Part shown: in pieces, positions 213 to 4,470 of the stretch
Layout of the letters: every line of letters begins with the position of its first letter
How positions within the stretch are numbered: position 1 is the stretch's first letter
Origin: a virus
Lineage: Duplodnaviria; Heunggongvirae; Uroviricota; Caudoviricetes
Virus record (IMG/VR): IMGVR_UViG_2778261035_000003
DNA: 4,534 bases
Direction: 5' to 3' (one strand)
The notes under the pieces: model-generated
What the model saw: the letters and a program-made list of their open reading frames with translations, nothing else
What the model was told of the DNA's origin: nothing
Databases searched by the model: none
Position numbers and translations under genes: made by a program

Positions 213-905
213 TTAATTGTGTCGCTTAAGGGTTTGTGACTGGCTGATTAAGACCTTTCCAAAGACCATAAACCGGTGTTCATTTTCGCTGGTAATTCCC
301 CATTCACGGTAAATCTGGTTATCAGAAATCACCAGTAGTTTGTCAGGTATCATTTGCAGTCGTTTGACATAAATTTTATCATCAAAACCAAATACATAGA
401 TACCATCTCCATCAAACTGATTGATACTGACATCAACGAAGATGAGATCTCCTGGCTCAATGGTTGGACACATACTGTCCCCACGAACGTTGATAACTTT
501 AATGTGATTGGCTGGCCGTCCGCCAAACATCGATACAGCATTATCAGTTCTGTATTCAATGGCATGAATCACATCAATGACATCACCGCCCTGGATAAGG
601 CCATTTCCCGCACTGGCACTGACATCCAGCATTTCAATACGGAATACATCCTTCACCTGCGCAACATCCTCACTAATACTGTTTTTACATACAGTATTAC
701 TTTTGACGTCTGAGGTAAAGAGATCAGCAATATCAACACCTAAGCTCCTGGCAATATTACTCAGGGCTTGTTCAGTGAATTGTTTCTGCTTACCTGTTTC
801 CAGGCGTGAGATATTCGCCGCATCCACTCCTATTGCTTCAGCGAGATCGGCGATTTTCATGTTCTTCGCCTGGCGAAGTTGTCTGACTCGGTTTCCTATG
901 TTCAT
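213..905 (-). CDS. CI-like prophage repressor: N-terminal HTH_XRE domain plus C-terminal S24 (LexA-like) autopeptidase domain
   Basis: 230-aa ORF. N-terminus has a classic HTH (KIADLAEAIGVDAANISRLETGK). C-terminal domain has the Ser-Lys dyad in the GDSM (Ser144) and VKRL (Lys181) contexts, 37 residues apart as in LexA. A candidate Ala-Gly cleavage site lies in the linker (SASAGNG, about residues 99-100). The gene is divergent from a Cro-like gene. Confidence 0.9.
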   Translation of the reverse strand: MNIGNRVRQLRQAKNMKIADLAEAIGVDAANISRLETGKQKQFTEQALSNIARSLGVDIADLFTSDVKSNTVCKNSISEDVAQVKDVFRIEMLDVSASAGNGLIQGGDVIDVIHAIEYRTDNAVSMFGGRPANHIKVINVRGDSMCPTIEPGDLIFVDVSINQFDGDGIYVFGFDDKIYVKRLQMIPDKLLVISDNQIYREWGITSENEHRFMVFGKVLISQSQTLKRHN

Positions 906-1807: not shown

Positions 1808-2952
1808 ACAGTTTAACGGCAAATAACCGTTTGCCGCAACAGCTGGTGGTCAGCGTGGCTGAACACCTGTTGTTACGGCATGAATGCAGATTATCAAATC
1901 ACCTGGCTGTAAGTAACCACAGAGAACTTTACCTGACTGTGGGGGGCGAGTTGTGCAGGAACTTAACTGCTGGTTTCGTGACGGAAGAGGGCTTTATGTC
2001 CATGTTATTCGTTGGGAGCCAGAAACACAGCGCGTTATCTATCTTCGCAAAGACTACCCGCATGAGTGCTTTAGTCCTTTGTGGAAATTCAGGCGTGATT
2101 TTGTTGAGTGCGAAGAACCACCAGCACATTGATTCTGTCATTCCGGGACGTTACACTGTTCAGGCACCTTATAAAGCGGGTGCCGGGATTGGCGTCCTGG
2201 AAATGTTATCGGCGATATATGACGCGCCAGCGTCTTTTTTATCGTCTGCGTCTGCGCACACCCAAATTATGGTGGGCTGGACGGGGGCACCGAAAGGTGC
2301 GCCGGTTTCCGATAACGCCGGTTACGCCAACCCCGTTCAGTTCACCACCAGCGAAATTGGCGTTTCCGGTGGTGAAGGTAATTCACTGTTATCGGAGGCT
2401 GCCATCATGGCTACGATCCCTGCCTTAGTACAACCTGAACTTTGCATTATTGCAGGCAAAGTTGTTACTTCTTCTCTGGCTGTTGCTAGTTATTTCGGCA
2501 AACAACACAAAAACGTAATTCAAAAAATTGCGTCTCTTGAATGCTCTGCCGAATTTACAGAGCTGAATTTTCAGCCCAGTGAGTACATCGACGCATCAGG
2601 CCGCAAACTACCTTGCTATCAAATAACCCACGACGGCTTTGCGTTTCTTGCTATGGGTTTCACGGGTAAACGTGCTGCCCAGTTCAAAGAGGCATACATC
2701 TATGCCTTTAACCAGATGGAGAAACAGCTTTCAAATCCCTCTGTACCGAGCGACGTTGCACATAACGCCAGCGTTCTCTGTTCCTACATTTCATCAATTC
2801 ATCAGGTCTGGCTGCAGCAGCTTTATCCTATGTTGGCAAAAGCCGAATCTCCGCTGGCTGTTAGCTTGTATGACTATATTAATGATGCTTCGGCACTGGC
2901 CTGCCTCATAAATTTGTCGCTGAACCCTTCAGAGGTAAGGGGGCGCAAATGA
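1804..2952 (+). CDS. 382-aa ORF: N-terminal region of unknown function fused in frame to a C-terminal Rha-family (Phage_pRha) regulatory domain; possible internal start at 2407
   Basis: Frame is open for 1149 nt with GC-rich third positions throughout. Start ATG 1804 overlaps the upstream stop (ATGA). Residues about 205-300 (IIAGKVVTSSLAVASYFGKQHKNVIQKIASLECSAEFTELNFQ...YQITHDGFAFLAMGFTGKRAAQFKEAYIYAFNQMEKQL) match the Rha domain. A strong internal RBS GGAGG (2394-2398) sits 8 nt upstream of in-frame ATG 2407, which would give a 181-aa protein with the usual N-terminal Rha placement. Confidence 0.6.
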   Translation: MNSLTANNRLPQQLVVSVAEHLLLRHECRLSNHLAVSNHRELYLTVGGELCRNLTAGFVTEEGFMSMLFVGSQKHSALSIFAKTTRMSALVLCGNSGVILLSAKNHQHIDSVIPGRYTVQAPYKAGAGIGVLEMLSAIYDAPASFLSSASAHTQIMVGWTGAPKGAPVSDNAGYANPVQFTTSEIGVSGGEGNSLLSEAAIMATIPALVQPELCIIAGKVVTSSLAVASYFGKQHKNVIQKIASLECSAEFTELNFQPSEYIDASGRKLPCYQITHDGFAFLAMGFTGKRAAQFKEAYIYAFNQMEKQLSNPSVPSDVAHNASVLCSYISSIHQVWLQQLYPMLAKAESPLAVSLYDYINDASALACLINLSLNPSEVRGRK

Positions 2953-3173
2953 TCCGGAATATTTTCAAACTGTTTACCAATCAGACTTTCCGTTGTCCTC
3001 GTCCGGGTCAGTGGTACACCACGCCTGCAGGGCATGTTCTACGTGTTAGCTTGGTGGACCGTGAATGTCAGAAGGTGATTTGTGAACCGCTGGGCCGTAA
3101 TTACCGCGTCAGTATGCCGCTTATAGCCTTTCGCTCCGGAAAAAACATGAAGCATCTCGGAGGTGCAGCATGA
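2949..3173 (+). CDS. Hypothetical small protein (74 aa), unknown function
   Basis: ATG 2949 overlaps the upstream stop (ATGA). SD-like GAGGTAAGGGGG (2932-2943) lies upstream. Codon usage is consistent with neighbouring genes. Three Cys residues but no recognised motif. Confidence 0.6.
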   Translation: MIRNIFKLFTNQTFRCPRPGQWYTTPAGHVLRVSLVDRECQKVICEPLGRNYRVSMPLIAFRSGKNMKHLGGAA

Positions 3174-3988
3174 GTATGGAGCTGATGGTTAAAGCGATGA
3201 AAATTCGAGTGGGTAATCCATTGCGAAAACTGGTTCTGATCAAGCTGGCTGATAATGCCAGCGATCAGGGGGAGTGCTGGCCCAGCTACCAGCATATTGC
3301 TGACCAGTGCGAGATTAGCAAACGTTCTGTGATGAATCATATTGCGGCCCTTTGTGAGTCCGGGCTGGTAAAAAAAGTCACCCGGAAAGGCGAAAAAGGT
3401 AACTCAAGTAATATCTATCTTCTTCATCTTGATGGTGCAGGAGATTCACTAGGGGGTAGTGCAAATAATTCACTATCTGGTGCAGCAAATTCACCAGGTA
3501 GTGCAGGAGTTACACCAGGGGGTAGTGCAGGAGATTCACCCAGAACCAGTCACTCTTTTGAACCAGTCAATGAACCAGTCAATGAACCAATAGCTGTTGG
3601 TGCATCTGCTGATGAGTCTGTGCGAGTTCGTTCAAACCGACCGGAATACTCTCCGGAGTTTGAGCAGGCATGGCTGGCATATCCCAAACGTGCTGGTGGC
3701 AATTCAAAATCAGCGGCCTTCAAAGCCTGGAAAGCCCGTTTGAACGAGGGGGTAAACCCCGAAACCATGCTGGAAGGTGTGAAACGCTACGCGGGCTGGG
3801 TATCTGCGATGGGTAACAGCGGCACACAATTTGTGAAACAGGCTGTCACGTTCTTTGGTCCGGATCGTCATTTCGAAGAATCCTGGGAAGTTCCTGCGGT
3901 ATCGGCAGCCAGATGCGAAGACCCGTACTTCAAAGCCAGTTACAACAATGTGGACTATAGCCAGATCCCGGCAGGGTTCAGGGGGTGA
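3170..3988 (+). CDS. Putative phage replication initiation / replisome-organiser protein (N-terminal winged-helix HTH_36-like domain, Gly/Ser-rich linker, C-terminal DnaT-like region)
   Basis: 272-aa ORF. ATG 3170 overlaps the upstream stop (ATGA) with SD GGAGG (3159-3163). N-terminus (LRKLVLIKLADNASDQGECWPSYQHIADQCEISKRSVMNHIAALCESGLVKKV) matches the HTH domain typical of phage replication initiators. The central low-complexity linker is encoded by iteron-like DNA repeats. The C-terminal assignment (FEQAWLAYPKR...KAWKAR) is from memory and less certain. Confidence 0.8.
   Translation: MSMELMVKAMKIRVGNPLRKLVLIKLADNASDQGECWPSYQHIADQCEISKRSVMNHIAALCESGLVKKVTRKGEKGNSSNIYLLHLDGAGDSLGGSANNSLSGAANSPGSAGVTPGGSAGDSPRTSHSFEPVNEPVNEPIAVGASADESVRVRSNRPEYSPEFEQAWLAYPKRAGGNSKSAAFKAWKARLNEGVNPETMLEGVKRYAGWVSAMGNSGTQFVKQAVTFFGPDRHFEESWEVPAVSAARCEDPYFKASYNNVDYSQIPAGFRG
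3435..3539. repeat. Iteron-like array: five quasi-palindromic 15-bp cores GTGCA-N5-TTCAC at 21-24 bp spacing (candidate origin of replication)
   Basis: Seen in sequence: cores at 3435-3449 GTGCAGGAGATTCAC, 3459-3473 GTGCAAATAATTCAC, 3480-3494 GTGCAGCAAATTCAC, 3501-3515 GTGCAGGAGTTACAC, 3525-3539 GTGCAGGAGATTCAC. They lie inside the replication gene's linker-coding region, and local codon choice is atypical (gga, tca, cta, agt, aga, ata), suggesting a DNA-level constraint. Function as an origin is inferred by analogy with lambda ori inside gene O. Confidence 0.4.
3543..3590. repeat. Direct repeats of GAACCA(GTCA): four copies, the last three forming a 12-bp tandem GAACCAGTCAAT x2.6
   Basis: Seen in sequence: copies starting at 3543, 3560, 3572 and 3584. 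They encode EPVNEPVNEP in the replication protein and sit immediately downstream of the iteron-like array. Confidence 0.7.
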
Positions 3989-4470
3989 TCATGAGCCTGA
4001 TGAGTGAGATTCAAAAATTCATTGAAAGCAATCCTGGATGTACGACCGGTGATATTGCGAACGCGTTTGCATACTTTCCACGTCCCCGTGTACTGAATAC
4101 GACCAGTAAGTTACGCCAGTGCAGACGTGTCGCTTATCGTAGTGAAGGCAAAACACACCGGCATTTTTCTCGCAAGGCTGTGTTGCCACCTGAGCCGGTG
4201 CTGAAGCATATGAGTGTGGCCAGTAAAAGCTACGTCGGCACTAATGATCAGCGGGTGATTTTGCGCCTGATTCAGCAGGCAGAAGATCTGGAGTCAAGAG
4301 GTTTATTTCGTCGTGCTGCAACGGTGTGGATGGCGGCATTCCGTGAAAGCCACTCCCAGCCAGAACGAAACAATTTTCTGGCACGTCGTGAGCGGTGCTT
4401 ACGGAAAAGCAGCAAGCGCGCTGCATCGGGTGAAGAGTGGTATCTGTCAGGGAATTTCGTGGGGGCTTAA
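3985..4470 (+). CDS. PerC-family-like transcriptional regulator (prophage-encoded, YfdN-like)
   Basis: 161-aa ORF. The C-terminal motif AEDLESRGLFRRAATVWMAAF resembles the conserved LE..G.WRRAA..W core of PerC/Pch regulators (recalled, not searched). Start is either GTG 3985, overlapping the upstream stop, or ATG 3991 preceded by GGGGG (3981-3985); the ATG may be the true start. Confidence 0.65.
   Translation: MIMSLMSEIQKFIESNPGCTTGDIANAFAYFPRPRVLNTTSKLRQCRRVAYRSEGKTHRHFSRKAVLPPEPVLKHMSVASKSYVGTNDQRVILRLIQQAEDLESRGLFRRAATVWMAAFRESHSQPERNNFLARRERCLRKSSKRAASGEEWYLSGNFVGA

Follow-up and report, generated by a model that had tools for sequence, protein, structure and literature searches.

The stretch of DNA analyzed here, referred to as the window, comprises 4,534 nucleotides of a virus of the class Caudoviricetes (IMG/VR record IMGVR_UViG_2778261035_000003) and, by its gene content, represents the early-right region of a lambdoid prophage. 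It contains a replication initiator gene (3170..3988, plus strand) whose product of 272 amino acids is composed of a winged helix, a disordered linker and a helical C-terminal domain, and whose linker-coding part carries an array of short DNA repeats (iterons) together with a conserved 37-bp block, forming a candidate vegetative origin of replication. The protein belongs to the Pfam family HTH_36 (PF13730; 44.1 bits, cutoff 25) and to PHROG 270, annotated as 'replication initiation protein' (phrog_270; 1.6e-87). At 97% identity, the gene matches orf39 of SfV as well as the replication genes found in mEp460, in the cdtI phage and in many Stx2 phages, and its product is 87% identical to sb42 of ST64B. 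In the nomenclature of Stx phages, it corresponds to the replication type 'Eru6', represented by Stx2a_WGPS2 (PMC8951638).

The AlphaFold2 model of the initiator predicts a single winged-helix domain at the N-terminus (amino acids 1-88; 3170..3433, plus strand) with a predicted local distance difference test (pLDDT) score of 70-93, comprising helices at residues 3-11, 17-29, 40-47 and 51-64 and a wing at 67-85; the helix at 51-64 is the predicted recognition helix. Comparison of this domain with the Protein Data Bank (PDB) by Foldseek retrieved only generic winged-helix proteins, including the N-domain of DnaD (2v79, E=0.02, amid many other generic winged helices), and the corresponding sequence profile, DnaD_N (PF21984), scored 24.3 bits against a cutoff of 27. 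No sequence relatives of the initiator were found in the PDB by sequence search. Between the confidently modeled winged helix and the helical C-domain lies a linker (residues 91-157) with pLDDT below 50, rich in glycine, serine, alanine and proline; since it is predicted to be disordered, any peptide dictated by the DNA should be tolerable there. The C-domain (3641..3958, plus strand), with helices spanning residues 162 to 229, is of the 'replisome organiser', YdaU or DUF1376 type (PHROGs 26426, 1701 and 9327), and its tblastn matches carry the annotations phage replisome organizer, YdaU family and DUF1376. An initial annotation, made from the sequence of the window alone, had placed the repeats in the linker-coding part of the initiator gene and had reported a switch to A/T-ending codons there. 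The low pLDDT of the linker agrees with the former, and the latter is reflected in the GC content at third codon positions (GC3), which is 0.13 for the residues encoded by the repeat stretch (amino acids 89-143) versus 0.50 for amino acids 1-88 and 0.53 for amino acids 144-272.

The array spans positions 3435-3539 (codons 89-124) and consists of five 15-bp dyad repeats with the consensus GTGCA-N5-TKCAC: iteron 1, GTGCAGGAGATTCAC, at 3435..3449; iteron 2, GTGCAAATAATTCAC, at 3459..3473; iteron 3, GTGCAGCAAATTCAC, at 3480..3494; iteron 4, GTGCAGGAGTTACAC, at 3501..3515; and iteron 5, again GTGCAGGAGATTCAC, at 3525..3539, which adjoins the conserved block and whose position is invariant in the family. 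Start-to-start spacings are 24/21/21/24 bp. The pattern GTGCANNNNNTTCAC (GTGCA-N5-TTCAC) is exact at 3435, 3459, 3480 and 3525 and has one mismatch at 3501, where TTACAC replaces the TTGCAC of relatives; the counterpart of this copy in SfV and cdtI is a perfect dyad, GTGCA-GGAGT-TGCAC. Thus, the five quasi-palindromic cores at 21-24 bp spacing proposed in the initial annotation are present as four exact copies and one with a single mismatch. Eight one-mismatch matches occur in the window against 0.47 expected, a number reached by none of 200 shuffled sequences, and in the complete 37-kb genome of SfV exact copies of the iteron and of the unit GAACCAGTCA, which recurs in the adjoining block, are confined to one cluster. 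Each copy is made up of two conserved arms of 5 nt around a spacer of 5 nt that is free to vary; together, the arms constitute the dyad GTGMA/TKCAC, and in many relatives this dyad is perfect. Such a combination looks like the site of a dimeric helix-turn-helix protein.

Other explanations for the repeated DNA were also considered. No Rfam family reached its gathering threshold in 3400-3650, the only such matches (isrK and C4) lying upstream, and a scan of 3100-4100 for promoters and terminators revealed no promoter-like site and nothing within the array. Single-strand DNA folding of the array and the block yielded no significant hairpin, with z-scores of -0.7 to +1.8, and an RNA or hairpin explanation was therefore dropped. 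The sole 'Fis-like' pattern match proved to be iteron 2 itself, and two overlapping open reading frames (ORFs), at 3459-3593 on the plus strand and 3550-3768 on the minus strand, were taken as by-products of the repeats.

Homologues were gathered by tblastn against phage genomes, by a DNA-pattern scan of viral contigs and by a protein-based search, the last of which, restricted to the N-domain (amino acids 1-87) and to one genome per species, served as the unbiased sample. An array is present in all 90 distinct N-domain variants, always between the winged helix and the remaining protein. These variants come from numerous gammaproteobacterial genera, with representatives in Enterobacteriaceae, in Pseudomonas, Shewanella, Aeromonas, Marinomonas and Xenorhabdus, and in Vibrio phages, among others. 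Most arrays have three to five copies (two to seven in all but one of the 90), with spacings that almost always measure 21, 22, 23 or 24 bp. Of the 89 arrays with at least two copies, 77 have a final spacing of 24 bp, and the last copy always ends two bases ahead of the next conserved element.

These arrays allow selection on DNA to be distinguished from selection on the peptide. The repeats might represent nothing but a slippage-prone, low-complexity Gly/Ser/Ala/Pro linker, that is, a coding variable number of tandem repeats (VNTR) devoid of function at the DNA level, as would suit a peptide of this composition that is predicted to be disordered and whose repeat number differs between strains; tandem-repeat variation in SB42 of ST64B is also named in the titles of supplementary files of a published study (PMC3901673). 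However, copies lie in differing reading frames in 51 of the 90 arrays, typically with paired spacings of 23+22 bp, which keep within the 21-24 bp phasing but are not multiples of three. One such array is that of the variant L025, where AGTGCAGGAGATTCACC yields VVQEIHQ next to the in-frame GAAYSP, so that the DNA dyad is kept while the peptide changes completely. Together with conserved arms around a free 5-nt spacer, which is the pattern of a protein-binding site, and a repeat sequence that co-varies with the recognition helix, these observations already contradict a purely coding VNTR, which is left as a scarcely credible explanation. Comparison of the homologues shows that selection acts on the repeat DNA rather than on the peptide. 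The initial annotation had named homologues that keep the linker and lose the DNA repeats as evidence against its proposal; instead, the DNA repeats are kept even where the peptide differs.

A second line of evidence is provided by specificity. Residues 51-54, at the start of the predicted recognition helix, co-vary with the iteron class: GTGNA-N5-TNCAC occurs with [KRE]R[ST][VA], GGGCA-N5-TGCCC with SRSTVK, TAGGCC..AGCA with DRSTVRK, TGCC-N7-GGCA with CSK[ST]AVR, GTGAC-N5-GTCAC with KRSVMRH, and GTGTA-N5-TACAC with SRKTAIG. The covariation in relatives that had been suggested as a check is thus found, although the 2x2 table of iteron class versus helix start (65/2/3/20; Fisher p=7e-15) ignores shared ancestry and, having no correction for phylogeny, indicates consistency rather than proof. 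As for the suggestion of a distinct initiator/iteron specificity, the window does differ from lambda, but it is ordinary within its own family, where its class, GTGMA-N5-TKCAC, is the commonest and extends from Enterobacteriaceae (Enterobacter) to Pseudomonas, Shewanella and Marinomonas.

Among close relatives, the array varies in copy number as a coding VNTR. Near-identical E. coli and Shigella proteins have lengths of 242, 250, 272, 283-286, 290-294 and 296-302 amino acids, corresponding to 1, 2, 5, 7, 8 and 9-10 repeats, respectively. In proteins that are more than 88% identical (P0001-P0043; L001 4231-4540), the iterons vary in number and the 12-bp units GAACCAGTCAAT range from one to three; the cdtI phage has eight repeats, including an in-frame 66-bp duplication of repeats 1-3. 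Amino acids 1-48 are nearly constant across the initiators.

The closest known counterpart in architecture is oriλ in gene O of phage lambda, as the initial annotation had pointed out, and both the place of the array, at the boundary of the N-domain and the linker, and its geometry are indeed equal. In both cases, the origin region lies inside the initiator ORF, at the junction between the DNA-binding N-domain and the linker, and consists of dyad iterons about two helical turns apart: four of 18 bp spaced 20/24/23 bp in oriλ, five of 15 bp spaced 24/21/21/24 bp in the window. The lambda iterons begin at codon 117, just past the DNA-binding domain, and are read in frames 0, 2, 2 and 1; the frames of the iterons are thus arbitrary in both systems and their number is variable among relatives, with four in lambda versus six in lambda-type Stx phages (PMC7466680). 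Both systems also place specificity in the N-domain and have an exchangeable C-domain. However, lambda O belongs to Phage_rep_O (PF04492, 123 bits) and the window initiator only to HTH_36, BLASTP gives no meaningful alignment between them, and the iteron sequences differ. On these sequence comparisons, the window origin would work like oriλ and O without being a member of that family by descent.

Taken together, these features make it probable, at roughly three chances in four, that the segment 3395-3600, in the linker-coding part of the initiator gene, is the vegetative origin of a lambdoid prophage belonging to the SfV / ST64B / mEp460 / 'Eru6' Stx-phage type, and that the iterons are, at similar or slightly better odds, the initiator sites of this phage origin. 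The repeats could alternatively be sites at which the initiator binds for regulation, as an autoregulatory roadblock, in titration or handcuffing for copy control or in replication-type exclusion, with unwinding taking place elsewhere. Iterons in plasmids and in lambda do serve control and exclusion as well (PMC3349717, PMC4488673), no strong AT-rich DNA unwinding element (DUE) adjoins the array, and isolated iteron-like sites occur at 1953 and 2372. Regulation alone is nevertheless distinctly improbable, given that the SfV genome has one cluster and no other repeat array, that geometry and location equal those of the proven oriλ, and that, irrespective of the genes downstream, the array is always accompanied at a constant distance by a second conserved element of DNA.

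This second element is the 37-bp block CCAGAACCAGTCACTCTTTTGAACCAGTCAATGAACC at 3540..3576, conserved family-wide, which contains two GAACCAGTCA units 17 bp apart and GAACC. The window has three exact GAACCAGTCA units (3543, 3560 and 3572) and a degenerate fourth one (3584); the segment 3572..3593, comprising an extra 12-bp unit GAACCAGTCAAT and the degenerate unit GAACCAATAG, is restricted to the window/SfV type. The number of units varies by strain, as is also seen at the peptide level in EPVKEPVKEPVNEP versus EPVNEP variants. The initial annotation had described a GAACCAGTCA repeat block and an unwinding element of only moderate AT-richness; the units are there, but rather than a weak AT-rich tract they are part of the family-conserved element.

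In the protein-based search, which covered other genera, the block matches at no fewer than 30 of 37 bases in about 70 of 79 genes, and conservation reaches 90% or more at most of its positions. The genes departing from this pattern are three truncated pseudogenes, six genes at 20-24/37, several of which carry a block variant three bases shorter, and two Aliivibrio genes. One variant without the block, P0039, may come from a dead prophage. In viral contigs, all 120 matches to the exact block pattern lie in frame inside homologues of this initiator. In a set of 55 sequences with N-domain identities below 85%, two sequences share a codon at a conserved residue with a probability of 0.88 in the block (10 columns) versus 0.37 in the N-domain (58 columns; Mann-Whitney p=2e-6), and synonymous changes make up only 19% of the codon differences in the block versus 62% of those in the N-domain. 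Arg125 is always AGA and Ser129 always TCT, and the AT-richer codons AGA, AGT, TCT and GAA are retained even in Pseudomonas genes with GC3 of 0.65-0.71. In the family average, the block forms a local GC minimum, -0.10 to -0.13 relative to the gene.

Such conservation at the level of sequence suggests specific recognition of the block, which may be by an invariant part of the initiator or by a host factor. The block might instead be maintained as a short linear motif of the protein or as a recombination junction at which N- and C-terminal modules are swapped, rather than as a site of unwinding or loading, a view that would be compatible with the iterons being the origin. In its favor, the encoded peptide is conserved and many different C-domains come after the block across the family. 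Moreover, in two natural chimeras, P0067 and P0072, a foreign N-domain with its own iteron class is fused to a window-type C-domain exactly at the block, indicating that an N-domain is passed on together with its iterons and that the block is a module and recombination boundary. Nevertheless, codon choice is nearly fixed across genera of different GC3 (AGA for Arg, TCT for Ser129), and recurrent changes (ACC to ATC, CCA to TCA, TTT to CTT or TCT) are mostly non-synonymous (T to I, P to S, F to L or S), altering the peptide yet keeping GAAYCAGTCA, which is the opposite of what constraint on the peptide would produce. Second-order selection for recombination is also unlikely to fix 37 bp from E. 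coli to Pseudomonas. Conservation as a motif or junction is accordingly considered unlikely.

We regard the block as the best candidate for the site of opening, because it keeps a constant place with respect to the last iteron, codon choice makes it AT-richer, its single strand is unstructured (the bottom strand unusually so, if anything, in single-strand DNA folding), and it is conserved whatever genes follow. That the block is a melting or strand-holding site is put forward tentatively, at odds clearly below even, by analogy with known initiators and from its sequence. Plasmid Rep proteins bind one DUE strand in a sequence-specific manner (PMC4081077, PMC10602881), which is the model preferred here for the block, and DnaD offers a further precedent for holding one strand (PMC10201434). 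The segment to the left of the array, at 3395..3430, includes the least stable duplex in the gene (GC 27-33%; 30-mer dG of -32.5 to -35.2) and coincides with a dip of -0.09 in family-average GC at -150 to -120. This dip largely arises because the wing peptide is rich in N, S, I and Y; the left flank was ranked second as a DUE, given that its composition follows this peptide and its sequence is not conserved.

As the basis of origin activity, we infer the following order of binding, melting and helicase recruitment. Dimers of the N-terminal winged helix would read the five dyad iterons and, placed on one face of the helix by a phasing of approximately 22.5 bp, would build a wrapped complex resembling the lambda O-some. 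Stress from this complex would open adjacent DNA, with the 37-bp block as the place of strand separation, where the initiator or a host factor might hold one strand. The C-terminal 'replisome-organiser' domain and a DnaT-like tail would then bring in the host DnaB-DnaC.

Several points weigh against an origin organized in this way. The least stable DNA (3395-3430) lies on the opposite side of the array from the block, and the block itself has only 40-47% GC in the window (30-nt windows, 3530-3600), in agreement with the initial description as only moderately AT-rich and unlike a classical AT-rich DUE. The block also encodes a conserved peptide, PRTSHSFEPVNEP, making a role at the protein level possible. 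Pattern scans of 3400-3650 detected neither DnaA boxes nor IHF sites nor clusters of GATC; even with one mismatch allowed, the DnaA-box pattern TTWTNCACA is absent from that interval, the nearest instance being at 3832. For no member did the literature yield data on binding, unwinding or autonomous replication, and a plasmid search for a mini-replicon revealed no small plasmid using the initiator gene as its replicon, only phage-sized circles that are probably excised prophages. The neglect of shared ancestry in the covariation test belongs on the same side.

With regard to helicase recruitment, the initiator is the only replication gene of the phage. No helicase, loader, primase or any other replication gene is found in the genome of SfV, a functional phage, and a PerC/YfdN-like gene takes the place of a P-type loader gene next to the window initiator. 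Since no helicase, loader or primase is encoded by the phage, the host DnaB-DnaC would have to be recruited. Relatives with the same N-domain and other C-domains are followed by a P-like loader, by DnaC and DnaB, by a DnaB-like helicase or by a primase-helicase; a P-like gene is present, for instance, in RAH1 and S1249.

A possible means of recruitment is suggested by the C-terminal tail of the initiator, SQIPAGFRG (3959..3985, plus strand), which is identical at 8 of 9 residues to the end of E. coli DnaT (primosomal protein i), SQIPPGFRG. In both proteins the tail occupies the extreme C-terminus, and the remainder of the two proteins cannot be aligned. No DnaT family in Pfam or NCBIfam matches the initiator. 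The possibility that the initiator is a DnaT homologue was rejected, as the last nine residues alone match and represent a shared tail motif. Only 2 of 76 members in the cross-genus sample have a tail of this type, which is confined to enterobacterial initiators; elsewhere in the family the C-terminus is acidic-hydrophobic, as in EDPLI, WEDFI and NEYL. In passages of reviews and of a 2026 preprimosome structure paper, the way in which DnaT recruits DnaB-DnaC is described as unknown, and these passages do not address the function of the DnaT tail. The match, observed in sequence, is a lead rather than a mechanism.

In a more ambitious version of this proposal, the block would be a second, family-constant origin element for sequence-specific strand opening or holding, which fixes melting and helicase delivery for any helicase system (host DnaB-DnaC, a P-like loader, phage DnaB or a primase-helicase), and the DnaT-identical tail of the enterobacterial 'solo' initiators would hijack, for DnaB-DnaC, the partner of the DnaT tail in the host restart primosome. 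This combined proposal is speculative and rather doubtful as a whole.

Comparison with other replication systems further defines the position of the window origin. In lambda, two iterons and the adjacent tract are enough for unwinding (PMC7466680); where lambda has a tract of about 40 bp with approximately 23% GC, the window has a sequence-conserved block of 37 bp with 40-47% GC, and where the P gene follows in lambda, a PerC-like gene follows here. The origins of iteron plasmids (RK2 TrfA, pSC101 RepA, F RepE and R6K pi) likewise have initiator sites about 22 bp apart and a winged-helix initiator. However, plasmid iterons are asymmetric monomer sites, in contrast to the dyads of the window, which imply binding by dimers; plasmid Rep proteins have two winged-helix domains and their origins have DnaA boxes and an AT-rich 13-mer DUE, whereas the window has one winged helix in the model and no DnaA box; and the window origin, unlike those of iteron plasmids, lies inside a coding sequence. 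In Gram-positive phages with replisome organisers, such as SPP1 (G38P, with oriL inside gene 38) and the lactococcal phages TP901-1 and Tuc2009 (rep genes), the origin repeats also lie inside the initiator gene, whose product joins an origin-binding domain at the N-terminus to a C-terminal domain for recruitment of the helicase or loader. These phages, which have other hosts, encode their own loader and helicase. The only tie in sequence between the window initiator and these proteins is the sub-threshold DnaD_N match.

The remaining genes of the window comprise a cI-like S24 repressor (213-905, minus strand), cro (1003-1263), a CP76/YmfL-type cII (1256-1807), a DUF4222 gene (1953-2132), a Rha-type antirepressor (2407-2952), a small PHROG-1153 gene (2949-3173), which is followed by the HTH_36 initiator gene (3170-3988), and the PerC/YfdN-like gene (3985-4470; Pfam PerC, 33.5 bits; PHROG 1324, 'transcriptional activator'). 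The last of these overlaps the initiator stop codon by 4 nt and occupies the position of P in lambda. Directly upstream of the antirepressor gene lie isrK (2164-2240; 63.7 bits) and C4 antisense RNA (2265-2352; 82.8 bits), both detected in Rfam at gathering level, and this region resembles a c4-ant-like (isrK-type) immunity module of P1/P7. A 382-amino-acid ORF at 1804-2952, a single 'antirepressor' coding sequence in the annotation of the cdtI phage, is probably not one gene. Between the C4 RNA and the antirepressor start codon, an iteron-like sequence with perfect dyad arms, GTGAAGGTAATTCAC, occurs at 2372-2386; it could be due to chance, considering that 0.47 one-mismatch matches are expected per window, or it could be a point where the initiator touches antirepressor expression. 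Over its full length, the window has a top match of only 94.9% identity among 5,426 complete E. coli genomes, compared with 97-98% to many phages for the initiator gene, indicating a mosaic without an exact counterpart in this collection.

Searches of the literature brought up no description of this origin, of the iteron classes or of the block, although an earlier mention is possible, and the papers that classify such replication regions in Stx phages discuss no origin (PMC8044961, PMC8951638). The conserved block is the main new observation, and its conservation at the sequence level is invisible from the window alone. The initiator type, represented in about 5,900 protein clusters, is very common in E. 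coli and Shigella prophages, including Stx2 ('Eru6') and cdt-converting phages, and also occurs in prophages of Salmonella, Klebsiella, Pseudomonas, Vibrio and Shewanella. A known origin would provide a handle on replication-dependent toxin amplification and would account for the coding VNTR that typing schemes will meet, and the natural pairs of initiator and iteron specificity may be usable for orthogonal replicons. In addition, the block could make the choice of melting site by O-type initiators directly testable, and the DnaT-like tail could do the same for the binding partner of the conserved C-terminal tail of DnaT.

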